NCBI GenBank assembly: GCA_041753395.1 | Contig: JBGSUQ010000001.1 | Location: forward strand, 221,948 to 285,947 | Length of the DNA: 64,000 nucleotides | Direction: 5' to 3' | Source of the DNA: Spirochaetota bacterium | GTDB taxonomy: Bacteria; Spirochaetota; UBA4802; UBA5550 | Shown: piece after piece, positions 14,659-63,615 of the stretch | Position numbering within the stretch: position 1 is the first letter of the stretch | Layout of the letters: each line of letters opens with the position of its first letter | Notes under the pieces: generated by a model | The model's input: the letters and a program-made list of their open reading frames with translations, nothing else | Database searches by the model: none | What the model was told of the DNA's origin: nothing | Made by a program: the position numbers and the translations under genes

Positions 14659-14799
14659 TCTCGCAGAGACGCAGAGGCGCAGAGAAAAAAAAGAGAATTA
14701 AATCATTACGTTTTAAAACGATTTCCCCAATATATATAAAATTTTATATTATCATGAGCAAACCAATAAAAAACTCTGCGGCTCAGCGACTCTGCGAGA
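14659..14799. repeat. MITE-like element, family A copy 1: imperfect ~26 bp terminal inverted repeats (tctcgcagagacgcagaggcgcagag ... ctctgcggctcagcgactctgcgaga) around an AT-rich core
   Basis: Read directly from the sequence, at a convergent gene junction. A second copy lies at 32035..32158. Confidence 0.6.
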
Positions 14800-24734: not shown

Positions 24735-25973
24735 TTGACTTTGACCGCCAGATTGCAGAACATTTGGGACAAACCCTATTCCCGGGTTCTTTCAGTAAAT
24801 GAACGTCTGTGGCTTGCGGCCGATACTATGAACCCTCCTTTCGCGATACAGATGATTTGCGAGGGCTGCGGAACTATCGATACCCGGGAATGGCGGAAAG
24901 CCGTTGAACTGGCCAGCGCAGCAAATCCGGGAAGCCGCTTGAGGCTGAAGGGCCTGCTCACTTCATGCCGATGGGTTGATTCCGAAACAGCGCCACCGGT
25001 ACTGGAAGTCGACGGTAGTGCATGGTCCGGTTACAGCCCCGAAGGCGCCCCCTTCCTGGAAAAACCATTTAATGTCGTCGACGGCCCCACCTGTGAAGTG
25101 CTCATCATCCACGGAAATCCCATCCGTATCGCCTTCCGGGCTCATCACGCCGTCATGGACAATCACGGCATCATATTCTGGGCCGAAGAGATATTCCGGG
25201 CCCTCCAGGGCAAGCCGCTGCGCGGGTCCTATTCCCGAGCGACGGACTGGGACGTGGCAAGATCGTTCCAGTCCGGATACCGCAAGCCCTTTCCGCACGA
25301 TAACCTCTCCATCACCGGGAAGGCTGAAGGCATTGAGTCGGGAACCGTGTGGGGACGCAGGAGCGTCCCCGGGCATTTCCAGAAGCTGCTTGCCCAGGTG
25401 GCGTACCATACGGCACAGGAGGCCCGCCGCCATGGAGAGGGAAATGTGCGCTTTGCCATCCCCATCGACCTCAGGTCACGCATCCAGGGGCTGCAGTCAA
25501 CGGGGAACCTCTCCATCGGCATCTATATTGATGTGAGGCCCGATACCACAATAGATGAAATCGGCTGGGACATCGCCTGGCAGCTCAGGGAAAAACGAGA
25601 CTGTATGATCGACCGGTGGGATTTCCTTTACCGGTATATCCCGATCAGCATCCTCGGACAGGAAGGCACAAGAAGAATTATTGATCACCATAGCAAAGGC
25701 CTTTACAGCATGTCAGGCCTAATAAGCAACGCCGGCAGGCTCAATACAAAGCATTTCTCCGGCGGCGGCTTTGAATGCGGTTCCATATTCGCAATCCCGC
25801 CGTATTTCTCATATCTCCCGCTGCTGCTATGGCTTTACGGAACCGGTGATTCCGTTGAGCTGGTCTATGCCGCGCCGCGGGTCCTGGCGACACAGGGCAG
25901 GCTCGACGCCGCCATTGACCGAATTGTCTCGGCATTAATGCCCGCCAGCTACATGCCGGTCTATCGTGCCTGA
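24735..25973 (+). CDS. Stand-alone condensation-domain-like acyltransferase (HHxxxDG superfamily: NRPS C-domain / WS-DGAT / PapA-like), paralog 1 of 4
   Basis: 412 aa; TTG start (alternative TTG at 24741 after GAGG). PPFAIQMICEGCGTIDTREWRKAVELASAANPGSRLRLKG...NPIRIAFRAHHAVMDNHG. The HHxxxD motif sits near residue 137, as in condensation-type acyltransferases. It is about 45-55% identical to the next three ORFs. Confidence 0.7.
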   Translation: MTLTARLQNIWDKPYSRVLSVNERLWLAADTMNPPFAIQMICEGCGTIDTREWRKAVELASAANPGSRLRLKGLLTSCRWVDSETAPPVLEVDGSAWSGYSPEGAPFLEKPFNVVDGPTCEVLIIHGNPIRIAFRAHHAVMDNHGIIFWAEEIFRALQGKPLRGSYSRATDWDVARSFQSGYRKPFPHDNLSITGKAEGIESGTVWGRRSVPGHFQKLLAQVAYHTAQEARRHGEGNVRFAIPIDLRSRIQGLQSTGNLSIGIYIDVRPDTTIDEIGWDIAWQLREKRDCMIDRWDFLYRYIPISILGQEGTRRIIDHHSKGLYSMSGLISNAGRLNTKHFSGGGFECGSIFAIPPYFSYLPLLLWLYGTGDSVELVYAAPRVLATQGRLDAAIDRIVSALMPASYMPVYRA

Positions 25974-25985
25974 AAAGGAATAATC

Positions 25986-27200
25986 ATGCGCAGGCATAGC
26001 CCAGATGATCCCTCCCCGGTCAGGCCCCTCTCAATAGCTTCACGGTTATGGGTCGCCGCCAATACGATCACACCGCCCTTCGCGAACCAGGTCATAGTGG
26101 AAGGCACCGGGTACTTCAACGCCGATGAATGGCGTACGGCCGTCCGCATAGCGTCGGAAGCAAACCCGGGCGCCAGACTTGTCCTGAAGGGGTGTCTCGG
26201 ATCAAGCCGATGGATCGATACAGGGACCACGCCGCCAATCAGGGAAGTTGACGGCTCCTCATGGGACGGGCTGGGATCGGATGGTGCGCCCTTCCTCAAG
26301 CAGGATTTCAATCCACGAAAAGGACCCAACAGCGAGGTACTGCTGATGCACGGAAACCCGGCCCGGGCCGCCTTCCGGAGCCACCACGCAGTCATGGATG
26401 GCAGGGGAACCATGACCTGGACGGAAGACATTTTCCGGGTCCTCCGCGGCGAGAAACCGCTCGGCTCTGAATACGCCATGATTGAAAACAACCTCCTGAA
26501 TCTGAGCCGGGGGAAAAGGAGCAAGCCGCTGCCTCACCAGTATATCGGCCCGACAGGGAAAGCCGACGGAACCGAAATAGACCTTGCTTGGAAGAGGGTA
26601 ACGCTCATCGGCAAATATCCCCGTCTTCTCGCGCGGGTGCTGTTCCTCACGGCCCGGGAGGCGTGGCGCCATGGCGACGGCAAGGTCAGGATCGGCATTC
26701 CCGTCGATCTCCGTTCCCGCCGCGAAGGCCTCCGTTCCACCAGCAATCTCACAAACGCTATTTATATAGACATTGACCGGAAAGCGACTGTTGACGGGAT
26801 AGCAGATGATATCGCACGGCGTCTTTCAATTCGTGCGGACGGCGAAATCACCTGGGAGGACCTCATCATCAGCTATGTGCCGGTCAATATCCTTGCCAGG
26901 GCCATCAGGAACGAAGGGAGAGGCAACCAGAGATCGGGCCGTTTTCGCTTCTCCGGTTTCGTCTCAAACCTGGGCCGCCTGGACAGTGCCGCCTATTCAT
27001 GCGGTAGCTTCTCCGCGAGCGCGTATTTCGGGGTCCCCGTGTGCGCTCCCATCCTTCCCTTCAGCATGACCCTGTCCGGCCTTGGCGGCAGGATAGAGAT
27101 GCTCCTCATGATGCCCCGCAACATGGCAACCGGCGGCAGGCTTGATGCCGCCCTCGGCAGGATCGCGGACGGTCTCTCACAGACCGACATACGCCAATAA
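25986..27200 (+). CDS. Stand-alone condensation-domain-like acyltransferase, paralog 2 of 4
   Basis: 404 aa with an AAAGGAA SD. PPFANQVIVEGTGYFNADEWRTAVRIASEANPGARLVLKG...AAFRSHHAVMDGRG. Confidence 0.7.
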   Translation: MRRHSPDDPSPVRPLSIASRLWVAANTITPPFANQVIVEGTGYFNADEWRTAVRIASEANPGARLVLKGCLGSSRWIDTGTTPPIREVDGSSWDGLGSDGAPFLKQDFNPRKGPNSEVLLMHGNPARAAFRSHHAVMDGRGTMTWTEDIFRVLRGEKPLGSEYAMIENNLLNLSRGKRSKPLPHQYIGPTGKADGTEIDLAWKRVTLIGKYPRLLARVLFLTAREAWRHGDGKVRIGIPVDLRSRREGLRSTSNLTNAIYIDIDRKATVDGIADDIARRLSIRADGEITWEDLIISYVPVNILARAIRNEGRGNQRSGRFRFSGFVSNLGRLDSAAYSCGSFSASAYFGVPVCAPILPFSMTLSGLGGRIEMLLMMPRNMATGGRLDAALGRIADGLSQTDIRQ

Positions 27201-27204
27201 AAGC

Positions 27205-27233
27205 TTGACAATAGGTTTTTTGAATAATTATAT
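27205..27233 (+). promoter_or_regulatory. Near-consensus sigma-70 promoter (TTGACA-N17-TTATAT) in a short AT-rich island between paralogs 2 and 3
   Basis: aagcTTGACAataggttttttgaataaTTATATatttag. The -35 box is a perfect TTGACA with a 17-bp spacer, 20 nt upstream of ATG 27254. The surrounding DNA is about 60% GC. Confidence 0.5.
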
Positions 27234-27253
27234 ATTTAGATATCAGACTCAAC

Positions 27254-28432
27254 ATGCAAAAACCATACACCAGAAAACTTTCATTCAATGAGCGTATTTT
27301 CGTCGTTGCGGACCGGCTCTATCCGCCCCTGGCGAATCAGTTTATTTTTGAGGGAACCGGTGTCATTGATAGTGACAGCTGGCACGCTGCCGTTGAAGCC
27401 GCATCCGAGGCAAACCCGGGAAGCCGCGCAGTCCTTAAAGGAGCGCTGAACACCTGCCGCTGGGTGGATACGGGCATAACTCCCCCCATCATCGAGGTTA
27501 AGCAGGACAGGCAGGAATGGGACAAACCGGAGACCGTGCCCTATTTCACCAAACCCCTGTCCCCGGAAAAAGGCCCGACATGCGAAGTGGTTCTCGTCAG
27601 CGGCGACCCGCTGCGTGCCATCTTCCGGACCCACCACGCCCTCATGGACGGCATGGGCACCTTTGTCTGGGTGACGGACATTTTCCGTGCGCTGCGGGAC
27701 GAACCCTGCATCGGCTCTCAATCGACCATTACTGACACCGAACTGGCGTGGAGTTTTCAAAAGAAAATGAGGAAACCGTATCCCACCGAGCATATAGCGC
27801 CTACCGGCAAGGCCGAAGGGAGTGAAACCGGCATCATCACCCGCCGCATCCGCGTCAGTGGGCGGTTCCACAACCTCCTGGCACAGGTGGCTCTGCAGAT
27901 AGCGCGGGAAGCGTGGAGCCAGGCCGACGGCGTTGTCAGGCTCGGTATCCCTGTTGATATGCGGCCCCGCATGCCGGGCCTGGTATCAACGGCCAATCTT
28001 ACCTACGCCATCTATATAGAAATCAATAAGGACTCGACCGCGGATTCGATAGCCGGGGACGTGTCCCGCCAGCTCCAGGAAAAGCGGGAAGGTATGCTTT
28101 CCCGCGGCGATGACATGGCGCGGTACGTGCCGATGCGGGTCCTGGAAAAACTGGCCAGGAAAGTAATCGACAGGAGGCACGCGAACAGCATTTACAGCCT
28201 GTCCGGCATCATTTCCAACGTGGGAAGGATAAAACTCCAGCACTACCGTGGCGGCGGGTTCGAGCCGACTGCCTTCTGGGGCATACCGCCCGTCAACGAC
28301 TATGTTCCCTTTTTCATAGGCCTTGGCGGATATGATGACATTGTCGAGCTGGTGCTTTCCCTGCCCCGGCGGCTTGCGACCCGCAACCGTATCGACGGAT
28401 TGCTGGAACGAATAATCGCGTCGTTGAAATAG
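27254..28432 (+). CDS. Stand-alone condensation-domain-like acyltransferase, paralog 3 of 4
   Basis: 392 aa. PPLANQFIFEGTGVIDSDSWHAAVEAASEANPGSRAVLKG...AIFRTHHALMDGMG. Confidence 0.7.
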   Translation: MQKPYTRKLSFNERIFVVADRLYPPLANQFIFEGTGVIDSDSWHAAVEAASEANPGSRAVLKGALNTCRWVDTGITPPIIEVKQDRQEWDKPETVPYFTKPLSPEKGPTCEVVLVSGDPLRAIFRTHHALMDGMGTFVWVTDIFRALRDEPCIGSQSTITDTELAWSFQKKMRKPYPTEHIAPTGKAEGSETGIITRRIRVSGRFHNLLAQVALQIAREAWSQADGVVRLGIPVDMRPRMPGLVSTANLTYAIYIEINKDSTADSIAGDVSRQLQEKREGMLSRGDDMARYVPMRVLEKLARKVIDRRHANSIYSLSGIISNVGRIKLQHYRGGGFEPTAFWGIPPVNDYVPFFIGLGGYDDIVELVLSLPRRLATRNRIDGLLERIIASLK

Positions 28433-28466
28433 AACCTATCAGCCGCGGTATACATACAATTCCGAC

Positions 28467-29654
28467 ATGACACAACATTATATCCGCAAACTTTCATCCA
28501 CCGAACGGGCATATCTGATACTCGGCGATATGTATCCTCCCATGGCGAACCAGTATTTCTGGGAGGGAACCGGCGTTCTTGATCCGGGGCTCTGGCGTAC
28601 TGCGGTTAAGCAGGCGGCGGATTCGAATATCGGGTGCCGCCTGGCGCTGAAGGGCGTCCTCAACCGGGCCCGATGGGTCGATTCCGGCATACCGCCCCTG
28701 GTAAGAGAGATAGACGGAAGCCGCTGGTCCGGCATGAGCCCGGATAACGCCGATTTTCTGACTGCACCGCTCTCGCCCTGGACGGGACAGGGATGCGAGG
28801 TACTCCTTATCCACGGCAATCCGCTGCGGGTGGTTTTCCGCACCCATCATGCGATTATGGACGGTCGGGGAACCCAGACCCTGGCGGAGGACGTCTTCCG
28901 CGCCCTTCGGAGAGAACCGCTCATCGGATCGGAATGCAGGACGGTGGAACAGGAACTGGCGCGAAGCTTCCAGAAAACAAGCCGTTCCCCCTCCCCCCCT
29001 GTTCACATTGCCCCCACCGGAAAAGCGGACGGGTCCGGGAGGGACATGTACTGGAGGCGGTTCCAGGTCAGTGGCACCAACAAAAAAATAATTTCCCGGA
29101 TAGCGGTGTTACTGGCACAGGAGGCCCGCACCTATTCATCCGGACCGGTGCGCATCGGCATTCCCGTCGATCTCCGTCCCCGGAAAAGCGGGCTCCGGTC
29201 GACCAGCAACCTGACGAACTTCATATATGTGGACGTTAATCCCGAAGACACCCATACTGATATCGATAACGATATCAAGCAGCAGCTTTTCGAGTGCCGC
29301 GACGGAATGCTGTACCCCGGGGACGAACTGATCCGCTACATGCCGCTCGGATTGGTTCGCAGATTAGCAGATCGAAGGATACGGAAAAGCAACACCCTGG
29401 GATTATACAACACGACAGCGCTGATTTCCAATCTCGGAAAAAAGGAATTAAAGGATTTTACCGGGGGCGGGTTCCATGCGACGGCCTTCTGGGCGATCCC
29501 TCCCGGCTCGGAGCTCTATCCCTATTCCGTGGTACTGGCGGGGCATGGAGATGTCATAGAAATAATCATCTCCATACCTAAAGTCATGGCGACACAGGGC
29601 CGTTTTGACAGAAGCATCGATGTCCTTGCCAGGGGCCTGGAAAAGCCTGAATGA
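28467..29654 (+). CDS. Stand-alone condensation-domain-like acyltransferase, paralog 4 of 4
   Basis: 395 aa. PPMANQYFWEGTGVLDPGLWRTAVKQAADSNIGCRLALKG...VVFRTHHAIMDGRG. Confidence 0.7.
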   Translation: MTQHYIRKLSSTERAYLILGDMYPPMANQYFWEGTGVLDPGLWRTAVKQAADSNIGCRLALKGVLNRARWVDSGIPPLVREIDGSRWSGMSPDNADFLTAPLSPWTGQGCEVLLIHGNPLRVVFRTHHAIMDGRGTQTLAEDVFRALRREPLIGSECRTVEQELARSFQKTSRSPSPPVHIAPTGKADGSGRDMYWRRFQVSGTNKKIISRIAVLLAQEARTYSSGPVRIGIPVDLRPRKSGLRSTSNLTNFIYVDVNPEDTHTDIDNDIKQQLFECRDGMLYPGDELIRYMPLGLVRRLADRRIRKSNTLGLYNTTALISNLGKKELKDFTGGGFHATAFWAIPPGSELYPYSVVLAGHGDVIEIIISIPKVMATQGRFDRSIDVLARGLEKPE

Positions 29655-31950: not shown

Positions 31951-32034
31951 AGCAAAAAGAGGATGTTTCAAAAGACATGATGTTTCTTGTATAAAATCAA
32001 ATAGAAGCTAAATATAAAAATGTTTCTTGCAGAG

Positions 32035-32158
32035 ACGCAGAGGCGCAGAGAATAATAGAGAATCAATACACATTAAAAAAATATTTTCTAATATTTTTAC
32101 TTATACATAATCATGAATTAATTATTACAACTCTGCGACTCAGCGCCTCTGCGAGAGA
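32035..32158. repeat. MITE-like element, family A copy 2 (terminal inverted repeats tcttgcagagacgcagaggcgcagag ... ctctgcgactcagcgcctctgcgaga)
   Basis: Its terminal inverted repeats are nearly identical to the copy at 14659..14799. The AT-rich core has diverged. It lies at a convergent junction. Confidence 0.6.
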
Positions 32159-36595: not shown

Positions 36596-37219
36596 ATGAA
36601 ACTGGTGCTCATAGGACCGCCCGGTTCCGGCAAGGGAACCCAGGCGCTGAAGTTAAAGAAAAAATACGGAATACCTCACCTCTCTTCCGGGGATGTTCTG
36701 CGCGCCCAGGTGGCTGCGGGAACTGAATTCGGTAAAAAGATAAAGGTTTACATGGACCGGGGCGAAATCGGTCCGGCGGAACTGATCACCGAGGTGATCC
36801 TCTACCATCTGGAAGCCGAATGCCCCGGCGGCTTCATCCTTGACGGATTCCCCCGGACCGTGTACCAGGCGGAAAAGCTATCCGGACGGCACCGTATCGA
36901 CGTGGCCCTGTTCATCGATGTGTCAGAGCGGGAAATCACGTCGCGAATTACCGGCCGCCGTATCTGCCGGAACTGCGGCGTCATCTATCACATCGCGACC
37001 AACCCGTCGAAAGCAGCAGACCAGTGTGACTCCTGCAGCGGTCCCCTCTACCACCGGCCAGACGACAACGAGGAAACAATCCTGAACCGGATACACGTTT
37101 ACAACACTGAAACGCGGCCGGTCCTGGATTTCTACCATTACGCCGGCCTGCTTAATGCCATAAACGGCGAGCAGGATCCTGAGGTCATTTACAGGGAGAT
37201 CATCGGGATTCTAGAGTAA
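36596..37219 (+). CDS. adk: Adenylate kinase (with Zn-binding lid CxxC...CxxC)
   Basis: MKLVLIGPPGSGKGTQA is the P-loop. LDGFPRT, ...CRNCG...CDSC is the lid. The full length is 207 aa. Confidence 0.95.
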   Translation: MKLVLIGPPGSGKGTQALKLKKKYGIPHLSSGDVLRAQVAAGTEFGKKIKVYMDRGEIGPAELITEVILYHLEAECPGGFILDGFPRTVYQAEKLSGRHRIDVALFIDVSEREITSRITGRRICRNCGVIYHIATNPSKAADQCDSCSGPLYHRPDDNEETILNRIHVYNTETRPVLDFYHYAGLLNAINGEQDPEVIYREIIGILE

Positions 37220-37239: not shown

Positions 37240-37380
37240 GTCTCACCCCCGGCCTCCCTGTTTGACCTCACCCGCGCTCCGCGCACCCTCTCCTTTAAAA
37301 GGAGAGGGCTTTAGTATTAATACTCTTTTTTTTCCTTCTCCCCTTCTCCATTTAATGGAGAAGGGGCCGGGGGATGAGGT
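37240..37380. repeat. Palindromic / MITE-like element, family B copy 1 (ends gtctcacccccggcc / ggccgggggatgagg; internal hairpins ccctctcc-tttaaaa-ggagaggg and ccttctcc-atttaat-ggagaagg)
   Basis: It shares the cctcacccgcgctc[ct]gcgc box and the ctctcc/ggagag hairpins with 54231..54421. It lies at the convergent junction adk / DAHP synthase. Confidence 0.55.
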
Positions 37381-37405: not shown

Positions 37406-38434
37406 CTACAGAATATCAGCAAGCTCCAGGATGAACCGTTCCGAATCCTCCCACCCGAGACAGGGGTCGGTGATCGACTTTCCGAACTCGTCACCTGCCG
37501 GGTCCTGGGACCCTTCAAGGAGATAACTCTCCACCATAAAGCCTTTCACCATTTTCCTTAAGATTTCGGAATATTTCACGCTCCGCATCACCTCCATGAT
37601 GATGCGCGGCTGCTCCCGGTACTTCTTGCCCGAATTCGAATGGTTGGCATCGATGATTATCGACGGGTTTTCCAGCGACCGGTCCAGGTACATTTCGGTC
37701 AGGACAACCAGGTCCTCAAAATGATAATTGGGGAAATGGTTCCCGTACCGGTCCACGGATCCGCGTACCACGCCATGGGCAAGGGGGTTGCCGCTGGTGG
37801 CCACTTCCCAGCCGTTGTAGACAAAGGTATGGGGCTGCTGCGCCGCGTAGATTGAATCAATCATGACGCGCAAATCCCCCGACGTGGGGTTCTTCAGACC
37901 CACCGGGACGTCCAGGCCGCTAACGGTGAGGCGGTGCTCCTGGTTCTCAACGGAACGGGCCCCCACCGCCACATAGGAAAGGATATCGGCCAGATACGGA
38001 TAGTTGCCCGGGTAGAGCATCTCGTCAGCGGCCGGCAAGTGTGAAATTGACAGGGCCTTGATGTGCATCTCCCGGATCGCCAGGAGCCCTTTGGTCATAT
38101 CGGGCTTTTCCCGGTGGTCCGGCTGGTGCAGCATTCCCTTGTAGCCCTTTCCGGTTGTGCGGGGCTTGTTGGTGTAGATCCGGGGCATCAGCACCAGCTT
38201 CTCCTTCACGCGGTCCTGGAGCTTCGACAGCCTCGATACGTATTCATACACCGCCTCCGCATGGTGGGCCGAGCAGGGTCCGATGAGGACCAGCATGCGG
38301 CTGTCGTTGCCGGTAAAGACGTTTCGTATTATTTCGTCCCGCTTTTTCTTGACGTCCTGAAGCTGGACCGGGAGCGGGTTGCTTTCCAGAATTTCCCCCG
38401 GAGACGGATACTTTCGAATGTAATTCAGACTCAT
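37406..38434 (-). CDS. 3-deoxy-D-arabino-heptulosonate-7-phosphate (DAHP) synthase, class I
   Basis: LVLIGPCSAHHAEAVYEYVSRL, with a KPRT...GYKG-type core. The start is reset to MSLNYIRK (ATG 38434) with an AGGAGGGAA SD. The ORF-track start at 38524 is too long. Confidence 0.85.
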   Translation of the reverse strand: MSLNYIRKYPSPGEILESNPLPVQLQDVKKKRDEIIRNVFTGNDSRMLVLIGPCSAHHAEAVYEYVSRLSKLQDRVKEKLVLMPRIYTNKPRTTGKGYKGMLHQPDHREKPDMTKGLLAIREMHIKALSISHLPAADEMLYPGNYPYLADILSYVAVGARSVENQEHRLTVSGLDVPVGLKNPTSGDLRVMIDSIYAAQQPHTFVYNGWEVATSGNPLAHGVVRGSVDRYGNHFPNYHFEDLVVLTEMYLDRSLENPSIIIDANHSNSGKKYREQPRIIMEVMRSVKYSEILRKMVKGFMVESYLLEGSQDPAGDEFGKSITDPCLGWEDSERFILELADIL

Positions 38435-39380: not shown

Positions 39381-39554
39381 AAGTTTTATGTTGCTTTCAT
39401 GTCATCGCGAGTGAAATGAAGCGATCTTGTTTTTAATTATTGTATGGCTACTGGTTTCAATATTATTTTCTAAATCAAGATTGATTCTTCGCTTCGCTCC
39501 TCGCAATGAGATTCTGTATTAATTCTTGAGTTACTTTTTCACACAATTCATCTA

Positions 39555-39616
39555 TACCCCCCTGCCCCCCTGTGGGGGGCATCTTATCACGCTCCCCCTC
39601 GGGGGGACGGGGGGGT
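39555..39616. repeat. G/C-homopolymer hairpin cluster, family D copy 1 (C6-TGT-G6 and C5-TC-G6 hairpins followed by G7)
   Basis: cccccctgcccccctgtggggggc...ccccctcggggggacgggggggtt, in the purL-purQ intergenic spacer abutting the purL stop. It is similar to 47576..47668. Confidence 0.5.
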
Positions 39617-42604
39617 TCAAAAATCTTTAAATAATCCCTTATATACCTTCATGAGTTCATCAATGCTTGTGCGGACAATTGTTTTTCCTTTTAATCCAAT
39701 AATTTCAATGATGGATGATTCGGTAACTGCCCCGATGAGGCCTACCGGCACCCCGGCGAAGACCTTCTCGAATTCCTTCTTCTTTGAGGGATTGACGGAA
39801 ACCAGGACCCTTCCCTGTGACTCCGAATAGAGGATCGAGTCGTTCCTGTCCGTTTCCGACTGCACTGCCGCGAGGTTAGCCGAAAGACCAAGCATCCCGG
39901 CCATGGCCGATTTTGCCAGGGCCACGCCGAGACCGCCGCGCTCCACGCTGAGACATGACGCCACGAGTCCCCGGTCAATGACCGTTTCCAGGGCCCGGTA
40001 TGCAGCCACGAACCCTTCCGCCGGAACAGAGGGCGCCGCGTCGCCGATATAGCGCCGGCCAGAAATTGTTTCGCCCCGGTAGGCAAGGTATTCGCTGCCG
40101 CCCATCTCTTCCCTGGTCACACCGATTACATATACCAGGTCGCCGGGGAACTTGAAGTCGATGGTCTGGCATTTGCGGATGTCGTCAACCACACCGATGG
40201 AGGAAACCAGGAGCGTGGGCGGTATGGATATCATCTCCTCGCGGAAGTTCTCATCGTACCCGCGGAAATCGTTGAACATGCTGTCCTTGCCGGAGATGAA
40301 GGGCGTGCGGTAAGCGATCGCGTAATCCCGGCACGCCCGCGCCGCCTCGCGGAGCTGTCCGAGGCGCTCGGGATTGCTGGAATCGCACCAGCAGAAATTG
40401 TCAAGGATGGCCAACTTATCCAGGCGGCCGCCGGCGGAAATAGCGTTCCGCACAGCTGTGTCGATGGAGCAGGCCGCCATCCGGTAAGTGTCTATATCAC
40501 TGTAGGAGGGATAAAGGCCCTGGGAAAGCACCACCCCACGGTATGAATCGAGGACAGGCCGAATCACCGTGGCATTGCCATTCACGCCGCCCTTTCCCTG
40601 CAGGGGCTTAATCACGGAATTACCCTGCACCAGGTGGTCATACTGGGTGGATATGAATTCGAAACTGGCGGTGTTAAGCCTCCCGGCCATGTCGCGGAAT
40701 ATATCCGACATCTCTTCCGGATCGAGAAAGACCGGATAGGGATGCTTCTCTTTCGTATAGCTGGTTTTGAGCTTTTTACGGGGAAGCCCATCATGGAGGA
40801 AACCCATGTCCAGGTCGAAAATGACTTTCCCGCCAAAGCGTACGATGCCCCTTTTACCGTCCCTGAATTTCCCGATCACCGTGGCCTCAACACCGCGTCG
40901 CTCCATGAGGCTGATGAACTCCTCCAGCCGGTCATCGGGGACGGCCGCGGTCATCCGTTCCTGGGACTCGCTGACCCATATCTGCCAGGGGGCCAGGCCC
41001 GGGTACTTCAGGGGGACCCGGTCGAGGTCCACTTCGAAGCCGCCGCACTCCCTGGCCATCTCGGCCACGGAGCAGGAGAGGCCGCCGGCGCCGTTGTCGG
41101 TTATGGAATGGTACAGGCCGCGGTCGCGGGCCTCCTTCACGATGGCGTCGGAGAGCTTCTTCTGGGTGATGGGATCGCCAATCTGCACCGCCGTGGCTGG
41201 GCTTCCTGAAGATAGGGCCTCGGATGAAAACGTGGCACCGTGTATGCCGTCGCGGCCCACACGGCCGCCGATCATGATGATATTGTCGCCGCTCATGGCC
41301 CGCTTCTCGCAGGACGGCTTCCCATTTACAAATTTCGGGATAAGACCCACGGTGCCGACGAAGACCAGGGGCTTCCCCTTATACCGTTCGTCGAAATAGA
41401 CGAAGCCCTGGGGCGTCGGTATGCCCGAGGTGTTGCCGCCGGCATTCACGCCGTGCACCACCCCTTCAAGGATTCGTCGCGGGGACAGCATCCTGCTTGA
41501 CGGGTCCTTGCTCTTGTATAACGGCCTGGTATCGAAGGGATCGGCGAAGCAAAAGCCGTAGCGGTTTGCCACGGGCCGTGACCCCATGCCGAAGCCAATG
41601 GTGTCCCGGTTGACCCCCACGATGCCGGTTATGGCCCCGCCGAAGGGGTCCAGGGCGCTCGGGCTGTTGTGCGTCTCAACTTTATCTGATATGATGTAGT
41701 TCTCATCGAACTCGATGCCGCCCGAATTGTCCTCGAACACGGACACGCAGAAGTCTTTATCGCCCAGCTCGCGGCGTATCCTGATGGTGGCTTCCCTTAT
41801 GTAGCTGCGGAATATCCCTTCCGGGACGTCATCGTCGATCTGCGCGGCAAATATAGTATGTTTGCAGTGTTCACTCCAGGTCTGGGCAATAGACTCCAGT
41901 TCCACATCGGTGGGATTCCTTTTTTCGGACTCGGCGAAGTAATGTCGTATCGCGTGCATGGAAGCCATATCAAGGGCCAGGGGTCCCCGCCGGGGCCCTC
42001 CCCGCTCCTGGATGCCGTCCCTGGCTATCTTCATGAGTTCATCGTCGGGAACACCGAGATCAACCTCGTCAGCATCGGGCCGCTCATGGATACTCACCAC
42101 GGGCAGTTCTATGCCCATGCCCGCCTTCCGCACATATTCACTGGAAGAGAGTATCTTACTCCGCTGTATCAGCGGGTTGTACAGCTCCGCGCTTATCTGT
42201 TCGACCTGGCTCTTCGAGAGTCCGCCGCTGAAAAAATATGTTATCGTGGTAAAGACCGATTTCTCGATATCGAGATGTATCTTCAACAAATCCTCTATAG
42301 ATTCGCGCACCGTGTGAGCGATATTGTCGGTAACGCCGGGAAGAAACCCGATTTCAACGGCGTGATCGAATCCTTCCGGGGTGTAGGGCCGGTTTATGAG
42401 ACAATCCTGGATAACCGGCTGTATTAGCAGGCGCGATACCGCTAGGGCCCTGTTATCATCGATATCGGCATTAATTAGATAGTTATCGGAGATATGGACA
42501 GCGCGGACGGGAAATCCAAGGCCCGCCAGTTTTTTCCGCACCACCTCGCAGCGGGGGTCGCTGGTCCTGTGAAACACTTCGATGCGGTATGTTGCGCTTA
42601 TCAT
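39617..42604 (-). CDS. purL: Phosphoribosylformylglycinamidine synthase PurL with an N-terminal PurS-like domain (995 aa)
   Basis: It carries the PurL / AIR-synthase-related repeats (GVNRDTIGFGMG..., IGDPITQKKL..., GVVLSQGLYPSY...). Roughly 250 aa at the N-terminus are extra relative to small PurL. A GAGGA SD precedes it. Confidence 0.9.
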   Translation of the reverse strand: MISATYRIEVFHRTSDPRCEVVRKKLAGLGFPVRAVHISDNYLINADIDDNRALAVSRLLIQPVIQDCLINRPYTPEGFDHAVEIGFLPGVTDNIAHTVRESIEDLLKIHLDIEKSVFTTITYFFSGGLSKSQVEQISAELYNPLIQRSKILSSSEYVRKAGMGIELPVVSIHERPDADEVDLGVPDDELMKIARDGIQERGGPRRGPLALDMASMHAIRHYFAESEKRNPTDVELESIAQTWSEHCKHTIFAAQIDDDVPEGIFRSYIREATIRIRRELGDKDFCVSVFEDNSGGIEFDENYIISDKVETHNSPSALDPFGGAITGIVGVNRDTIGFGMGSRPVANRYGFCFADPFDTRPLYKSKDPSSRMLSPRRILEGVVHGVNAGGNTSGIPTPQGFVYFDERYKGKPLVFVGTVGLIPKFVNGKPSCEKRAMSGDNIIMIGGRVGRDGIHGATFSSEALSSGSPATAVQIGDPITQKKLSDAIVKEARDRGLYHSITDNGAGGLSCSVAEMARECGGFEVDLDRVPLKYPGLAPWQIWVSESQERMTAAVPDDRLEEFISLMERRGVEATVIGKFRDGKRGIVRFGGKVIFDLDMGFLHDGLPRKKLKTSYTKEKHPYPVFLDPEEMSDIFRDMAGRLNTASFEFISTQYDHLVQGNSVIKPLQGKGGVNGNATVIRPVLDSYRGVVLSQGLYPSYSDIDTYRMAACSIDTAVRNAISAGGRLDKLAILDNFCWCDSSNPERLGQLREAARACRDYAIAYRTPFISGKDSMFNDFRGYDENFREEMISIPPTLLVSSIGVVDDIRKCQTIDFKFPGDLVYVIGVTREEMGGSEYLAYRGETISGRRYIGDAAPSVPAEGFVAAYRALETVIDRGLVASCLSVERGGLGVALAKSAMAGMLGLSANLAAVQSETDRNDSILYSESQGRVLVSVNPSKKKEFEKVFAGVPVGLIGAVTESSIIEIIGLKGKTIVRTSIDELMKVYKGLFKDF

Positions 42605-53112: not shown

Positions 53113-54141
53113 ATGGCAGAAGATACACCAAGGCCGGTCCCGCCGGCAACATCCGACGAGATAATCAGTGAGCGCAAGCGCAGGATTTTCAGCATAAAAA
53201 CGCTGGTCTTCTTCGTCCTCTCTCTCTTTCTTATATGGTTTCTCCTGCAAAAAATCGATTATAAACGGACTTTTGACGCCTTTCTCCTCGCCAGGCTTGA
53301 TATGCTAGTATATTCGTGTCTCGCCTACACGGCCGCCAACATATTCAAGACCCTGCGGTATTCCCTGCTGCTGAAAAACCTGGACCTCGGCTTCTTCGAC
53401 CATTTTACCGTTTCAAGCTATCAGAATTTTTTCAACCAGATACTGCCCGCCCGTACCGGTGAGCTCACTTTCGTTTATTACCTGAAACAGTTCAGCAATG
53501 CACCTCTTTCCACGGGCCTCCATATCCTTCTCCTCACGCGAATCTTCGACTTCATCGTTGTTTCCGCATTCTTCGTCGGCTCCCTGCTTTTTTATTACGG
53601 CCGGCAGACGTCGGGCATGCTGCTTGCCGCCGGGGTGCTGTTTTTCATTGTTTCGGTGATTCTGTTATTCAATCTCAAGTGGCTGGTGTTTCTCGGGGCG
53701 AAGATATTTACCGTGACAGTGCGGGCGCTCCACCTCGGGTCCATCGGGTTCGTTAAAAAGATCGAATCAAAAATCGACCCCATCGTCAGCGAGTTTTCAC
53801 GGTTTGAGACAATGCGCCATTTACCCGGACTGGCAATGTCGAGCCTTCTTGTCTGGACGGCTTTGTATCTGTTTTCGTATCTTACCCTCCGGGCTTTCGG
53901 CGTCGATATCGGCCTCCTGCTCTCCATTGCCGGGTCCACCGGCGGCGTGCTCGCCAATGTACTTCCCATAAACAGCTTCGGGAGTTTCGGCACCCTTGAA
54001 GCGGGATGGACGGCAGGATTCGTTCTCGTCGGCGTATCTGTTCAGGACGCAATCACAACCGGTTTCGGTTATCATATCATCAACTTTTCCGTAAGCGCCA
54101 TTCTAGCCCTTTTCTGCTACATGGTCCAGAGATTCAAATAA
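53113..54141 (+). CDS. PF03706-like (lysyl-PG-synthase TM / UPF0104) polytopic membrane protein, putative flippase partner of the GT2 enzyme
   Basis: The start is MAEDTPRPV at 53113. The frame runs on from the previous gene. There are about 8 TM helices, with FNQILPARTGELTFVYYLKQ. Confidence 0.55.
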   Translation: MAEDTPRPVPPATSDEIISERKRRIFSIKTLVFFVLSLFLIWFLLQKIDYKRTFDAFLLARLDMLVYSCLAYTAANIFKTLRYSLLLKNLDLGFFDHFTVSSYQNFFNQILPARTGELTFVYYLKQFSNAPLSTGLHILLLTRIFDFIVVSAFFVGSLLFYYGRQTSGMLLAAGVLFFIVSVILLFNLKWLVFLGAKIFTVTVRALHLGSIGFVKKIESKIDPIVSEFSRFETMRHLPGLAMSSLLVWTALYLFSYLTLRAFGVDIGLLLSIAGSTGGVLANVLPINSFGSFGTLEAGWTAGFVLVGVSVQDAITTGFGYHIINFSVSAILALFCYMVQRFK

Positions 54142-54230
54142 CACCCCCCTGTCCCCCTGAAAAGGATGGTAAATTTCCATATTGAGCATACGGATATATG
54201 CCATCACCCATCCTGATTGAGCCGCGTTAG

Positions 54231-54421
54231 ACCTCACCCGCGCTCTGCGCGCCCTTATCTTTTAAACCTCACCCACTGACCCCCTCTCCATAATATGGAG
54301 AGGGGGGAATCATGATATGGATCTTAAATTCACTGGAGAGCATGAAACTGAATGTATTAAAATAATTATTACTTAAGCCCTCTCCCTTAGAAGGAGAGGG
54401 CGCGCAGAGCGCGGGTGAAAT
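54231..54421. repeat. MITE-like element, family B copy 2: 22-bp terminal inverted repeats (acctcacccgcgctctgcgcgccc / gggcgcgcagagcgcgggtgaaat) with internal ccctctcc...ggagaggg hairpins
   Basis: Read directly from the sequence. It lies at the convergent junction between the PF03706-like gene and ppdK. Confidence 0.6.
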
Positions 54422-54445
54422 TTTAATGGACAGGGTGTCTACAAT

Positions 54446-54474
54446 AAAAAAAGCCCCTGATTAATGCAGGGGCT
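54446..54474 (-). terminator. Rho-independent terminator of ppdK
   Basis: The minus strand reads cccaaaGCCCCTGcattaatCAGGGGCttttttt. Confidence 0.6.
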
Positions 54475-54499
54475 TTGGGATTCTCGTTTGATGTAGTAC

Positions 54500-57106
54500 T
54501 TATTCCGCCTTTTCCTGGGCCACTTTTATATTTATCTGGGCGATGCCCAGCTTCGCCAGTGGTATCGCGTAGGGCGAACAGGAAACATAGTTCAACCCCG
54601 CATCCATGCAAAACTGGATATTTTCCGGCGCTGCCCCATGCTCACCGCAGAGGCCCATCTTGATGTCCGGTCTTGACAGCCTTCCGCGAAGGGAGGCAAT
54701 CCCGATTAGCTCCTTCACTTCGTCGCCGAGATACTTGAAAAGGTTTGATTTCATCAGGTCAAACAGCGAATAACTCGGGAAGAAAGAGTTCGAATCATCC
54801 CGGGACAGACCGTACGTGGTCTGGGTCAGGTCGTTCGTGCCAAAGCTGAAAAATTCCGCATACTGGGCGATCTCGCCGGCACCCAGGGCTGCGGCTGGAA
54901 GCTCGATCATCGTTCCAACCTTGTAGTCGAGATCCTCAATGCCGTATTCCTCAACCACCTCGTTCTTGATGTCACGTATCCCCTTGACTTCTTTCCCTTC
55001 GATCTTCTTGCCGTTCTTGATAAACTTGATCTCTTCCTTGCTCATGACGATAGGGATCATGATCTCGGGCTCTATCTTGTGCCCCTCTTTCCGCAGCATG
55101 CACGCCGCCTCGAATATGGCGCGGCACTGCATCTCATATATTTCAGGAAATGTTACCGCCACCCGGCACCCGCGGTGTCCCAGCATCGGGTTCATCTCGC
55201 CCAGTTCTTCGCACCGGGCTATGATATCGGAGGCCCTATTGCTCCGGTCCCTGCCCTGCATGTACTGGACGAATATCTTCATGCTGTCTTCGGTCCTCGG
55301 CAAAAATTCGTGTAGCGGCGCATCAAGGAGGCGGATGGTAACCGGGTGACCTTCCATAATTTTAAAAAGGTCATAGAAATCGGACCGCTGCATCGGGAGA
55401 AGCGCCTTCAGCACCTTGCGGCGCTCCTCTTCGGAGTCGGCTATGATCATCTCGCGGAACTTCATGATCCGCTTTTCGTTAAAGAACATGTGCTCTGTCC
55501 GGCACAGCCCGATTCCCTTTGCCTTGAAGTCCTTGGCCACCAGGGCGTCACGGGGCTGGTCAGCATTGGCCCGCACGTTAAATGCACCTATTTGCTTTTC
55601 CACGATGTCCAGGAACTCAAAAAGTCCGTTACTCTTCCAGTCGGGCTCTATCAGTTCGACCTTGCCCATGAATATGGTTGGCGCCTCATAATAGGGAACG
55701 CTCATAGACACGTAATCGCCTTCATAGACGGTTTTACCGCCAAGGGTGAAGCTGTTGCCCCTTATTTTCATCTCGGGCTGGACCATGGCAACCTTGCCCA
55801 GACTCCGCGCAACAACCGGTGCGTGGGATGAAAAACCACCTTCGCAGGTAATGACGCCCTGGGCAACTTCGATCGCCTTTACATCTTCGGCAAATGAGGC
55901 CGGCATGACCAGTATGAATTTCGAGTCGCCGCCTTTCATGATGGCACGCTTATGCTCCTCGAGTAGCTTCGGTGTCGAGAAAAATACCCGGCCTATAGCT
56001 GCTCCGGTTGATCCGGCTATACCACCCTTGATGAACTTTACCCCCTTAGTCGTCCTGGGATCGATGACCGGGTGCAGGAGCTCATTGAGCTGATTCGGTT
56101 TTATCTTCTCGATCGTATAGGAATCGGAAACAATTTTCCGCTTCGTGAGGTCAAGAAGCGCCTTTATCTGGGACTGCGTTGACTTGTCATCGACCTCTTT
56201 CTGCTCAACGAGCCAGAAATCACCCTCTTCAATGGTGAACTTGATCTCGCGTATTTCCTTGAAGTTGTCCTCTATCTTGTGGGCAATTTCGGTAAAATGA
56301 GTGAAGTGCTTTTTTTCTATTTTGCTTATATCCTTTGCTTTTCCGGCCTGGATGTCGAATTCGCTCTGGCCGAACTCTCCCTGAATCTCCGGATCACCGG
56401 TCACGATGTTCCTGGTGTAGTAATTGCCCGCGTAGGAATTGTCTCCCCAGTTGCCATACACCATTACCTGCACCATGATTGACAGCGAATTGTCCACGTC
56501 GATGGTTGAGTCGCAGTAGCGTGACGATGCACCCTTGATTATAAGGCTGAGCTGGTCATATACGTCTTCACTGAATTTATCGGCGAAAAGTGCACGGTAG
56601 GATTCGATGGCCCTTTTGAGATCGTCAATTCCGGCCTTCTTTGCAATTTTTCCTTCTATCTGCTTCAGCTCTTTTTCGTCAACCTCGTAGATTTTTCTCG
56701 CCATGTTCCTGAGTAAAAACAGGTATTCGCCATAGGCAAATTCCATGCCGGTATATTTTCCGAAGGCCTCAACTGTCATGCTATTCATGCCTATGTTGTG
56801 TATGGACGGGAAGTGCGGTACATTCAGATCAGAACTTAAGACGACTTTTAACATGAGCGGTTTGTCGACATCGCCGTATTTCTTTTTTGTGTCCTTTTCC
56901 AGCTGGCTGATATAGGTGCTTAATATTTCTTTTAAATTGATCTGTGGGAGTTTCTGCGTGAGGACTGAATCGATGATAAAACCAGGTACAATGGGAAGGC
57001 CCATCATTGCAAGATCAACGGCCCTTCTGCCGCGTATTCCCAGACGCTGCCGGACTTTATCATCAACATCTTTCAGGTTTTTATTAAAGTATACAATATT
57101 TTCCAT
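54500..57106 (-). CDS. ppdK: Pyruvate, phosphate dikinase
   Basis: 868 aa with the PEP-utilizing enzyme signatures (GGRTSHAAI-like GGFSSHAPVVARSLG, and a ...NDLTQ region). An AGGAGA SD precedes it. Confidence 0.95.
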   Translation of the reverse strand: MENIVYFNKNLKDVDDKVRQRLGIRGRRAVDLAMMGLPIVPGFIIDSVLTQKLPQINLKEILSTYISQLEKDTKKKYGDVDKPLMLKVVLSSDLNVPHFPSIHNIGMNSMTVEAFGKYTGMEFAYGEYLFLLRNMARKIYEVDEKELKQIEGKIAKKAGIDDLKRAIESYRALFADKFSEDVYDQLSLIIKGASSRYCDSTIDVDNSLSIMVQVMVYGNWGDNSYAGNYYTRNIVTGDPEIQGEFGQSEFDIQAGKAKDISKIEKKHFTHFTEIAHKIEDNFKEIREIKFTIEEGDFWLVEQKEVDDKSTQSQIKALLDLTKRKIVSDSYTIEKIKPNQLNELLHPVIDPRTTKGVKFIKGGIAGSTGAAIGRVFFSTPKLLEEHKRAIMKGGDSKFILVMPASFAEDVKAIEVAQGVITCEGGFSSHAPVVARSLGKVAMVQPEMKIRGNSFTLGGKTVYEGDYVSMSVPYYEAPTIFMGKVELIEPDWKSNGLFEFLDIVEKQIGAFNVRANADQPRDALVAKDFKAKGIGLCRTEHMFFNEKRIMKFREMIIADSEEERRKVLKALLPMQRSDFYDLFKIMEGHPVTIRLLDAPLHEFLPRTEDSMKIFVQYMQGRDRSNRASDIIARCEELGEMNPMLGHRGCRVAVTFPEIYEMQCRAIFEAACMLRKEGHKIEPEIMIPIVMSKEEIKFIKNGKKIEGKEVKGIRDIKNEVVEEYGIEDLDYKVGTMIELPAAALGAGEIAQYAEFFSFGTNDLTQTTYGLSRDDSNSFFPSYSLFDLMKSNLFKYLGDEVKELIGIASLRGRLSRPDIKMGLCGEHGAAPENIQFCMDAGLNYVSCSPYAIPLAKLGIAQINIKVAQEKAE

Positions 57107-62814: not shown

Positions 62815-62865
62815 CACACCAAGGGGGATTTTTAAGGGGCTTCGCCCCTTAACCCCTAAAAATAA
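62815..62865. repeat. Small structured repeat, family C copy 2 (ttttaaggggcttcgccccttaacccc; 7-bp stem AAGGGGC/GCCCCTT)
   Basis: The core is nearly identical to 16271-16297. Confidence 0.55.
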
Positions 62866-63615
62866 TGCCTTTTTCACTACAACGTCAGTATTAATATCTT
62901 CCCCATGCCGTCTCGACGAAGGGAGATAGATCAATGAAAAAGTAAATATCCAATCAATATAATGATGTCAATGAATAATTTCGAGAAAAAATCAAATAGC
63001 TTCATGAAAAAATAACCGGCCTGTGGTTTTTTTCCGTGCCGTTTAACAAAAAATATCAGGAAAAACCGGTTTCCCTGTAATTATCATTGAAAAAGGCCGC
63101 CATAATAGGGCAACAGGAAGCATGGTTGTATGTTTTTTCTAAACTATAATAAAAAACTTGTTGATATATAAACCCTTGATTAACTTATAAGAAGCCGCCT
63201 GCGCTGTTGGTGATAGGAATTATATTTTTTTGAACCTAAAGCTTTTTAGGGATCCCAATATTTGGCTGCAATGGTCATGCCCCTCACGGGGAAGGCCTGA
63301 TCTGCCGTGCGGGAACCCACCTGGTATCAGGTTCAAAAAGCTTTCCTACACGGCAGCGCGGGTTTTTTTATTGTCCCCCGTTCTGAATTATTATTGCCAA
63401 TTGCCGCGCCCCTGTTCTATTGTCGTAATATGATAATCCAATCTGTGGCAGTGATGACCCATTGTTTTTTATGGACAGGATTAACAGGATAATCAGGTTT
63501 TGAAAGGAAGCAACAATAATCAAGTGACGGTATGTCGTAAAACCTGAACGGAACAATCCCGTTAATCCTCAAAATCCTGTCTTGAGATTTTATAATGCAC
63601 AAGCTCCTCATTCCA

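Follow-up and report, generated by a model that had tools for sequence, protein, structure and literature searches.

How did a short non-coding element with almost perfectly inverted ends come to lie behind ppdK, the pyruvate, phosphate dikinase gene, in a genome of the phylum Spirochaetota? The element occupies positions 54231-54421 of the window, by which we mean the whole 64,000-nt stretch of contig JBGSUQ010000001.1 analysed here, and a sequence-only reading had taken it for a classic miniature inverted-repeat transposable element (MITE), that is, a 190-bp unit bounded by 22-bp terminal inverted repeats (TIRs). We find that it is a composite of three-block units, a canonical inverted dimer with an orphan module next to it, and not a unitary 190-bp MITE. 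The units are a variant of the motif known as BoxC, PIT or TMECO, and we consider it probable that the gene-less dimer is a MITE-like derivative of a cassette that encodes a DUF559 nuclease.

The features that had suggested a MITE are present. acctcacccgcgctctgcgcgccc forms the left end (54231-54254) and gggcgcgcagagcgcgggtgaaat the right end (54398-54421); within them the 22-mer CTCACCCGCGCTCTGCGCGCCC is found at 54233-54254 (+) and, with one mismatch, at 54398-54419 (-), and a third copy with two mismatches lies at 37267-37288. These are three matches within three mismatches in the window, for an expectation of 0.00 (none in 100 dinucleotide shuffles), and a repeat search extends the inverted arms to 32 nt with 88% complementarity (54234-54265 / 54387-54418). 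Both ccctctcc/ggagaggg hairpins with 7-nt loops are where they had been described, as CCCTCTCC-N7-GGAGAGGG at 54282-54304 and 54378-54400, and the same pattern recurs at 37286-37308 (three matches in the window versus 0 in 100 dinucleotide shuffles). Folding of the 201-nt stretch is far more stable than that of shuffled sequences, with z-scores of -9.6 for DNA and -10.4 for RNA. The AT-rich core with its ATG is confirmed as well: the ATG at 54312 opens a 17-codon open reading frame (ORF; 54312-54365, MIWILNSLESMKLNVLK and a stop) right behind a GGAGAGGGGGG run, and the centre of the spacer (~54311-54359) is unmatched in BLAST comparisons with family copies. We rejected this ORF, with its Shine-Dalgarno-like G run, as a gene because it is not conserved in the orthologous locus L205.

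What did not hold is the extent of the element and the meaning of its ends. The building block that the two window copies have in common is a unit of ~40 nt, CCTCACCC-linker-CCCTCTCC-loop-GGAGAGGG, and they share no core sequence; on the other strand the pyrimidine arm CCCTCTCC comes first, separated by a loop from the purine arm GGAGAGGG, and a linker then leads to the third block GGGTGAGG, a mirror image of the purine arm. Full three-block units stand at 54267-54304 (-), 37266-37308 (-) and 37334-37379 (+). At ppdK, unit A, whose third block has one mismatch, is the 5' unit of a canonical dimer and unit B is its 3' unit, ~90% conserved in L205. In both nhmmer and regular-expression searches this copy (copy 2) matches the family on the minus strand alone, and the match leaves out the left arm; nhmmer aligns 54423-54261 (-) to positions 28-150 of a model made from copy 1 (E = 7e-14). 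The canonical element is therefore 54267-54419 (-), and the left arm belongs to the orphan module, which is intact in L205 as CCTCACCC-GCGCTCTGCGCG-CCCTCTCC. It is the pairing of the orphan module with unit A that produces the apparent near-perfect 22-nt TIR, and the supposed TIR is the same module present twice in opposite orientation, not two ends of one transposed unit. Rfam models gave no meaningful match to the element, either at gathering thresholds over the whole window or in E-value mode over 54100-54520, where a plant miRNA hairpin model scored best, at 24.6 bits for a threshold of 230. The sole Rfam family above threshold in the window is 6S RNA (RF00013, 81.6 bits) at 63193-63368 (+).

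The identity of the unit was reached by a full-text search for the block sequences, which led to Holder et al. (2015; PMC4666352). The TMECO motif of that study, formerly called BoxC and PIT, is CCCTCTCCC-loop-GGGAGAGGG-(TTA|CCG)-GGGTGAGGG, and the reverse complement of the window unit is this motif. Escherichia coli K-12 carries 23 copies, all intergenic, among which are five inverted pairs, each made of one type A and one type B unit; the isolated TMECO strand forms an intrastrand triplex in vitro, loci occupied by TMECO have raised local variability, and the pattern is reported from 262 genomes of Proteobacteria, whereas related G/C-rich motifs abound in cyanobacteria (PMC4666352). Published counts of the motif in E. 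coli range from 1 in strain IHE3034 to 29 in strain 55989. The strict pattern CCCTCNCCC-N3-6-GGGNGAGGG-N3-GGGNGAGGG has 0 matches on either strand of the window, owing to the longer loops and 8-nt blocks, so the element is a variant and not a strict member. Judged by block sequence and order, the window units are the BoxC/PIT/TMECO motif in a variant form, distinguished by its host in Spirochaetota, a long mini-hairpin linker and third blocks that face outwards.

With the pattern CTCACCCGCGCTCNGCGCNCCC and one genome per species, at least 103 loci were recovered, about 20 each from the Spirochaetota metagenome-assembled genomes (MAGs) CAZZHU01, MIBJ01 and VFJS01 and a few from other Spirochaetota; the source genome of the window was not among the matches listed. 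Among the loci listed, nhmmer with copy 1 gave 102 matches (74 non-overlapping elements), and a structural regular expression gave 30 canonical copies of 97-152 nt that have one layout in common. Their 5' part reads (GA)C-CTCACCC, a 12-13-nt mini-hairpin, CCCTCTCC, loop and GGAGAGGG, and their 3' part a spacer of 25-73 nt, CCCTCTCC, loop, GGAGAGG, a short linker and GGGTGAG-(GTC), so that all 30 end in (GA)CCTCACCC...GGGTGAGG(TC). Every dimer pairs one long-linker unit with one short-linker unit, and the mini-hairpin of the former is GCGCTCYGCGCR or CGCCTYCGGCGYG, two forms that differ by compensatory changes. For the 40 members whose gene context could be classified, 29 lie between tandem, 9 between convergent and 2 between divergent genes, and dimers point in the same direction as the genes in 11 cases and in the opposite direction in 18. 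The dimer family is thus dispersed, intergenic, independent of orientation and, as shown below, insertion-polymorphic in a clade of uncultured Spirochaetota.

Outside this clade, Enterobacter, Leclercia and most actinomycete loci matched the 22-mer pattern in ordinary sequence and not in units, and were set aside. Single true units with an identical linker also occur in Acidobacteriota, Elusimicrobiota, Endomicrobia and Myxococcota. The exact long-linker module CTCACCC-GCGCTCCGCGCA/G-CCCTCTC is present at single loci of Thermoanaerobaculia, Acidobacteriota, Elusimicrobiota, Endomicrobia and Myxococcaceae MAGs (L167, L169, L181, L187, L210 and L214, with complete dimers in L187 and L210), a distribution that suggests horizontal spread or a linker under strong constraint. 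In IMG/VR the general form of the unit was found on at least 120 contigs, with at least 186 units, many contigs being multi-copy. Two of these loci (L049 and L067; IMGVR_UViG_3300020057_000061 and 3300020203_000232) hold head-to-tail arrays of three or four units with a 72-nt period, each unit preceded by GCCTCACCGACGACGAGCAAAGACG, a layout absent from the Spirochaete family.

Within the unit, the third block changes together with the hairpin. Pooling the Spirochaete, IMG/VR and DUF559-selected loci, we counted 355 units in which the purine arm GGAGAGGG is joined to the third block GGGTGAGG and 24, in 18 loci with different loops and linkers, in which the arm GGAGAAGG is joined to GGATGAGG; the mixed combinations were seen twice (GGAGAGGG with GGATGAGG) and never (GGAGAAGG with GGGTGAGG), which gives a Fisher p = 5e-36, uncorrected for relatedness. 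The counts were made in a fixed register, chosen because stems of 9-10 nt shift the register in a register-free 8-mer mirror analysis. The variant arm GGAGAAGG pairs with CCTTCTCC and is then followed by GGATGAGG, with the change at the mirror position, and this substitution is, on sequence grounds, what a purine-motif triplex would need, with A.A-T replacing G.G-C. Rarer matched types were also observed (GGGGAGGG/GGGTGGGG, GGGGAAGG/GGATGGGG and GGGGAGGG/GGGAGGGG), and L272 carries a different variant at each end of the element, each internally consistent. The third block thus co-evolves with its hairpin in the mirror register, as a triplex predicts, the triplex itself being a predicted structure. 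No such covariation links the two ends of a dimer, CTCACCC standing opposite GGATGAG in 5/5 copies of this kind, which indicates that the inverted termini are a by-product of two inverted units and that the three-block unit is the selected entity.

The family has been mobile, as judged from filled and empty sites. The site of copy 1 is empty, with the same synteny, in L313 (6 nt of intergenic DNA) and L310 (43 nt), compared with 186 nt in the window, and in the reverse case L171 of MIBJ carries an element in an intergenic region that has no such element in the window. In L313 (3527-3543) the 3-deoxy-D-arabino-heptulosonate 7-phosphate (DAHP) synthase gene and adk are convergent with 6 nt between their stops, and a GGGTGAGG word (on the opposite strand, CCTCACCC) includes the adk stop, probably by coincidence. 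The window interval 39382-39640 is intergenic and dense in other palindromes (TCATCGCGAGTGAAATGAAGCGATC, CTTCGCTTCGCTCCTCGCAATGAGA and CCCCCCTGCCCCCCTGTGGGGGGCA...CCCCCTCGGGGGGACGGGGGGG), and the orthologous site in MIBJ (L171, 502-607) has a canonical dimer instead.

For copy 2, comparison with relatives gave a different picture from the empty site that a MITE insertion leads one to look for, and which copy 1 does provide. No clean empty site was found (L001 is identical, L205 and L225 are otherwise arranged, and L226-L228 are without synteny). The site is occupied in the three closest genomes, namely the window, L205 and L225, by three different arrangements of units: the dimer plus orphan module in the window; unit B, an intact orphan module and further degenerate units in L205, with no unit A before the contig end; and degenerate units all in one orientation within a 161-nt intergenic region in L225. 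Positions 54232-54312 of the window are ~90% conserved in L205, where the neighbouring intergenic DNA is unalignable, and more distant relatives have other neighbours after ppdK and the terminator only. The site behaves as an unstable hotspot at which units are gained, lost and rearranged, and not as a clean insertion. Target duplications of 2-9 bp, which had been expected, are not visible in the flanks of the 30 canonical copies or at the two window copies, the flanks of copy 1 being unalignable with the empty sites.

An autonomous insertion sequence (IS) with matching ends had also been expected, and none was found in the related loci; the gene that the units bracket is a DUF559 nuclease and not a known transposase. 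We searched the Spirochaete loci (~0.8 Mb) for ORFs between left-type and right-type termini, compared them with Pfam, and found that most are ordinary genes; none of the 18 flanked ORFs encodes a transposase or a REP-associated tyrosine transposase (RAYT; REP, repetitive extragenic palindrome), all being ordinary genes, unknowns or DUF559. The two smallest and most tightly flanked ORFs, from two different MAGs, both match PF04480 (DUF559, Vsr-like PD-(D/E)XK; E = 1e-31 and 2e-27). At L123 the layout is GACCTCACCC-linker-hairpin, ~85 nt, the ORF, and hairpin-linker-GGGGTGAGGTC; GGGGTGAGG contains the stop codon of the DUF559 gene, and the element has the same termini as the gene-less family. 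At L122 the DUF559 ORF lies between a short-linker and a long-linker unit, and a gene-less dimer ~75 nt away matches the two ends of the gene-carrying copy at 114/129 nt (88%), with ~400 nt including the ORF missing. A tblastn search of 1.95 Mb gave four DUF559 genes, one being E. coli ycjD, which had been included deliberately, and three lying in unit-selected loci, the third of which (L054) also has units on both sides.

The ycjD gene of E. coli K-12 ends ...CCC TCT CCC TGA in a degenerate unit, so that its stop follows CCCTCTCCC, and 3' of it are a duplicated fragment of its own 3' end and then TMECO #9 (Table 1 of PMC4666352). We found ycjD in 3378/5426 complete E. coli genomes (62%), and no empty site among E. 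coli genomes for it, as strains without ycjD (e.g. O157:H7) carry a TetR/RND efflux block by fabI. The E. coli loci compared are NC_000913.3 1349800-1352800 (L229) and L315.

The association was also seen when loci were chosen blind to the units. For 80 metagenomic loci picked by DUF559 homology alone (the best 80 of at least 399 relatives), 80 TM-type hairpins lie within +-250 nt of the match (63 kb) versus 8 in the other 218 kb, a ~35-fold difference in density, and 42/80 loci have at least one near hairpin. Typically one hairpin stands 20-100 nt upstream and another 17-90 nt downstream, with loops that are mutually reverse complementary. A blind search found inverted repeats of 16-63 nt bracketing the ORF in 33/62 non-redundant loci and in 0 of the controls displaced by ~700 nt; the repeats are mostly 38-63 nt long with 88-100% identity. 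All TIRs inspected, including those that the regular expression had missed, are three-block units with a short or mini-hairpin linker, and strict TMECO matches abut the DUF559 ORF in at least 11 loci. At L233 a unit of the E. coli type "B mm" lies upstream and an A-like unit downstream of a YcjD-like ORF, an arrangement that amounts to the inverted A+B pair of E. coli with a gene between its units. The bracketed elements measure 460-860 bp, and their ORF of ~110-140 codons keeps the invariant D...E-x-D-G...H residues. Inverted three-block units therefore bracket DUF559 ORFs both in relatives of the window and in many metagenomic bacteria.

Long flanking direct repeats are not general, being present at only 2-3/21 DUF559 elements. 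Two elements that do have them are at L244 (2381-2877; 94 nt at 94%) and L249 (2401-2878; 52 nt at 90%). In both, the repeat is a second copy of the 3' terminus of the host gene upstream, which looks as though the end of the target had been copied during insertion, and E. coli ycjD is similar in having a duplicated fragment of its own 3' end behind it. In a study of predicted inversion targets, "DUF559 domain-containing protein" was enriched (odds ratio 14; PMC9881135), and the literature that we searched contained nothing linking DUF559, PF04480, COG2852 or ycjD to BoxC or to any repeat.

On the explanation that we favour, the gene-less dimers would be internal-deletion, MITE-like derivatives of a ~0.5-kb DUF559 cassette, copied in trans by the DUF559 nuclease. 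The enzyme would act on folded (hairpin or triplex) ends in single-stranded DNA, or by break-induced copying as in homing, and we propose that either route would leave no target duplication. We infer both the direction of the relation between gene-carrying and gene-less copies, deletion derivative as opposed to landing pad, and the part of DUF559 as the mobilising enzyme. DUF559 bracketing may also explain the origin of BoxC-type repeats at large. It is conceivable, although we lean slightly towards doubt, that BoxC/PIT/TMECO repeats, those of E. coli included, are the TIRs or obligate landing pads of a ~0.5-kb selfish cassette that carries DUF559 only, with gene-less units and dimers as its non-autonomous derivatives. 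Just as tentatively, the partnership could be analogous to that of REP and RAYT, with a PD-(D/E)XK nuclease and triplex-capable ends. No result of this analysis contradicts the wider reading that such repeats belong with DUF559 cassettes, and independent lines of evidence of several kinds favour it.

Several observations weigh against a DUF559 cassette as the source of the dimers. The 1.95 Mb of unit-selected loci contain three DUF559 genes only, and nearly all units are far from one; the 64-kb window has no DUF559 gene, and its element consists of inverted units without an ORF. In the unit-blind set, 16 near-identical gut loci (one gene) and about half of the others are without bracketing repeats, and the query came from a unit-flanked gene, so that the 80 loci may over-represent that subfamily. 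Bracketing would equally arise if the gene homes into pre-existing pairs of units. The covariation, with relatedness uncorrected, has as its main signal two major haplotypes plus a few rare ones, and the ~90% conservation of the left part of the element in L205 could also mean host-level constraint. We know of no demonstrated transposase or homing activity of DUF559. In the study of Holder et al. a stable triplex was not observed in vivo or in double-stranded DNA, and the repeats showed no association with mobile elements in E. coli (PMC4666352).

On a rival account the units are targets: the dimers would spread by other means, DUF559 would be a free-standing homing endonuclease gene that inserts into them, and the window element would be an unoccupied landing pad. 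Insertion fits L122 as well as deletion does, since its gene-less and gene-carrying copies share both arms and part of the spacer, and the presence of ycjD in only 62% of E. coli genomes agrees with it. Vsr-like homing endonucleases were reportedly the subject of Dassa et al. in 2009. A table in PMC3424549 lists homing endonucleases among the Vsr-like nucleases. We nevertheless think this account unlikely: it leaves the arrival of dimers at new intergenic sites, as at the empty sites of copy 1, unexplained, and in several elements the ORF overlaps a unit (at L123 and in ycjD, as described), which argues for a long co-evolution of the gene and its ends. We would also call it improbable that the element serves the host, as a 3'-end stabiliser or terminator for the LPG-synthase-like gene, a protein-binding site, or a triplex or G-quadruplex that modulates replication or recombination, and owes its spread to selection for that function and not to selfish copying. 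Members do avoid divergent promoter regions (2/40) and sit downstream of genes, their stems are very stable, 54232-54312 is conserved amid unalignable intergenic DNA, and the three-way covariation implies selection on a folded state. However, orientation relative to genes is random (11 versus 18), the hairpins have no U-tract behind them and no Rfam match, the neighbouring genes are functionally unrelated, the arrangement differs among the three closest genomes, and further relatives lack the element after ppdK. Earlier work, as far as it is cited in PMC4666352, found PIT elements to be without promoter or terminator activity in E. coli.

Two established types of short mobile repeat remain to be weighed. 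The units could be REPs and the dimer a REPIN (two REPs in inverted orientation), mobilised by a single-copy RAYT (Y1/HUH, TnpA_REP) elsewhere in the genome. REP-RAYT systems are common in bacteria, and the formal layout fits, with two inverted palindromic units, an intergenic position, no target duplication and tens of copies. We regard this as very unlikely, as no tightly unit-flanked ORF in the ~0.8 Mb of loci is a Y1 transposase, the small tight ones being DUF559, which is also the gene bracketed across metagenomes, and the units show the three-block BoxC structure instead of the GTAG/CGTC-type head of known REPs. The classic MITE of the sequence-only reading would be a 190-bp deletion derivative of a DDE-type IS, inserted whole with a short target duplication, and its parent would carry the ends CCTCACCCGCGCTCTGCGCGCCC. 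In its favour are the near-perfect inverted repeat around an AT-rich core, the existence of other copies and the empty sites of copy 1. We find it hardly credible, in that the family boundaries are 54267-54419 and not 54231-54421, the left arm is an orphan module, no target duplication is visible at the 30 canonical or the two window copies, no transposase-like ORF stands between matching ends in the ~0.8 Mb of related loci, the termini of a copy co-vary each with its own hairpin and not with one another, and the orthologous site shows unit-level rearrangement and not presence versus absence. What stands of the MITE reading is a non-coding, dispersed family with inverted ends, dozens of copies and gene-carrying relatives; the boundaries, the target duplication and the transposase partner do not. 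As the gene-carrying relatives at L122 and L123 have the same ends, "MITE-like" is a fair label for this kind of element.

At ppdK itself, the element had been placed just upstream of the ppdK terminator, but the order is the reverse: read with ppdK transcription, the terminator (54476-54450) follows the ppdK stop (54500) and precedes the element, which therefore lies outside the ppdK transcript. The position of the terminator is kept in L225. The element is most likely a passenger without a role in ppdK expression, and at most it provides the LPG-synthase-like gene, whose stop lies 91 nt upstream, with stable hairpins in its 3' region. Copy 1 has the layout CCTCACCC-GCGCTCCGCGCA-CCCTCTCC-TTTAAAA-GGAGAGGG, spacer, CCTTCTCC-loop-GGAGAAGG-GGCCGGG-GGATGAGG; nhmmer matches in CAZZHU loci begin at model positions 6-7 and so cover its extra 5' partial unit.

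Positions of the repeat units and neighbouring features in the window
Feature	Position	Strand	Remarks
Copy 1, canonical gene-less dimer, 112-114 nt	37266-37379	+	between adk and the DAHP synthase gene
Extra 5' partial unit of copy 1	37242-37259	+	CTCACCCCCGGCCTCCCT; in the family consensus of the window/CAZZHU sublineage
adk, flanking copy 1	36596-37219	+	
DAHP synthase gene, flanking copy 1	37406-38434	-	
LPG_synthase_TM-family gene	53113-54141	+	3' end faces the element
Orphan partial unit	54232-54266	+	left "TIR" arm of the sequence-only reading; outside the canonical family element
Orphan unit, third block	54232-54239	+	CCTCACCC
Orphan unit, 12-nt mini-hairpin linker	54240-54251	+	GCGCTCTGCGCG; then degenerate pyrimidine arm CCCTTATC plus TTTTAAA
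Canonical gene-less dimer (copy 2), ~152 nt	54267-54419	-	third block, mini-hairpin, hairpin 1, spacer, hairpin 2, linker, third block
Unit B, short linker	54267-54304	-	CCCTCTCC-ATATTAT-GGAGAGGG-GGTCAGT-GGGTGAGG; found by the relaxed unit and canonical-element regular expressions
AT-rich spacer, 73 nt	54305-54377		longest spacer in the dimer family
Unit A, long linker	54378-54419	-	TTCACCC-GCGCTCTGCGCG-CCCTCTCC-TTCTAAG-GGAGAGGG; right "TIR" arm of the sequence-only reading
ppdK intrinsic terminator	54450-54476	-	AAAGCCCCTG-CATTAAT-CAGGGGCTTT, then a T run; not part of the element
ppdK (pyruvate, phosphate dikinase)	54500-57106	-	Pfam PEP-utilizers_C, E = 2.6e-69; orthologs up to 92% identity

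Other repeats were noted in the window. The pair 14658-14689 / 32024-32055 (TTCTYGCAGAGACGCAGAGGCGCAGAGAA, 94% identical) lies in AT-rich intergenic DNA at both places; the core of this family has 4 occurrences in the relatives' loci, and a related motif (CTCGCAAAGACGAC / GTCGCCTTTGCGAG) abuts several MIBJ dimers (L166, L123, L176 and L207). A third repeat family, GGGGG..TTTTAAGGGGCTTxGCCxCTTAACCCC, is represented by a pair at 16264-16303 / 62823-62862 (85% identical) and forms the hairpin AAGGGGC..GCCCCTT, and its core is found 8 times in the relatives' loci. Within 25445-29182 a 36-nt segment occurs four times at ~1240-nt spacing with 64-89% identity, the copies probably marking four tandem paralogous genes, and a 63-nt direct repeat (3773-3835 / 3950-4012, 177 nt apart, 73% identity) lies in an AT-rich stretch.

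By itself the repeat behind ppdK is an ordinary intergenic one, and the interest lies in its BoxC/PIT/TMECO building block. These repeats were reportedly treated by Bachellier et al. in the 1990s and by Hoyne & Maher (2000, 2002); to our knowledge they are present in hundreds of bacterial genomes, and their origin, spread and function have been unexplained since the 1990s. DUF559 bracketing suggests which enzyme might act on a repeat family that so far lacks one and, conversely, which DNA might be the substrate of a widespread domain of unknown function, found among others in an uncharacterised gene of E. coli K-12. If the cassette reading is true, DUF559 would be a new enzyme class among the few known to drive the proliferation of short repeats in bacteria, and it would explain why BoxC-bearing loci are rearrangement hotspots. 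The covariation of the third block is evidence from evolution that the three-stranded fold, or whatever reads it, matters in vivo.

Among known systems, the elements of the IS200/IS605 type are small, transpose as single strands, have ends that are recognised as folded hairpins and leave no target duplication. The family described here is similar in its folded hairpin ends, its lack of target duplication and its small size, but IS200/IS605 elements have an HUH enzyme, ends that are asymmetric and a target fixed as a tetra- or pentanucleotide, features that we did not see here. Bacterial MITEs are known that derive from IS with DDE transposases, e.g. Correia, Nezha and Chunjie, and with these the family shares inverted ends, many dispersed non-coding copies, sites that are filled in some genomes and empty in others, and a larger relative that has the same ends and carries a gene; it differs in having neither a target duplication nor a DDE transposase, and its "TIRs" are self-folding three-block motifs. 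The likeness to REP/REPIN-RAYT systems extends to short, structured, non-coding intergenic repeats, dimers of inverted units, no target duplication, and gene-less copies that far outnumber a small associated gene bracketed by the same units. The bracketed gene is here a nuclease of PD-(D/E)XK fold and not a Y1/HUH transposase, and the units have three blocks with mirror symmetry, whereas a REP is a simple palindrome with a GTAG head.

With the DUF559/Vsr-like nucleases (YcjD, PF04480, the homing endonuclease I-Bth0305I (3r3p) and the Vsr-like "fractured genes" homing endonucleases of PMC2677866), the link is the match of the bracketed ORF to PF04480 (E = 1e-31); none of them is reported, in the literature searched, to be bounded by BoxC-type inverted repeats, and the window encodes none. 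Compared with the published BoxC/PIT/TMECO repeats, the units here have blocks of 8 nt instead of 9, a first loop of 7 nt instead of 3-6, and a second loop of 6-13 nt instead of 3, which in unit A is a co-varying mini-hairpin; the third blocks of a dimer face outwards here and inwards in the E. coli pairs, and the host belongs to Spirochaetota. The three 8-nt cores CCCTCTCC / GGAGAGGG / GGGTGAGG are identical to those in Table 1 of PMC4666352 and stand in the same order, and both sets of repeats are intergenic, occur in both orientations and form inverted pairs of two different unit types. The sites that they occupy are unstable in both, the TMECO loci of Holder et al. (PMC4666352) showing the same unit-level instability that we observe behind ppdK.

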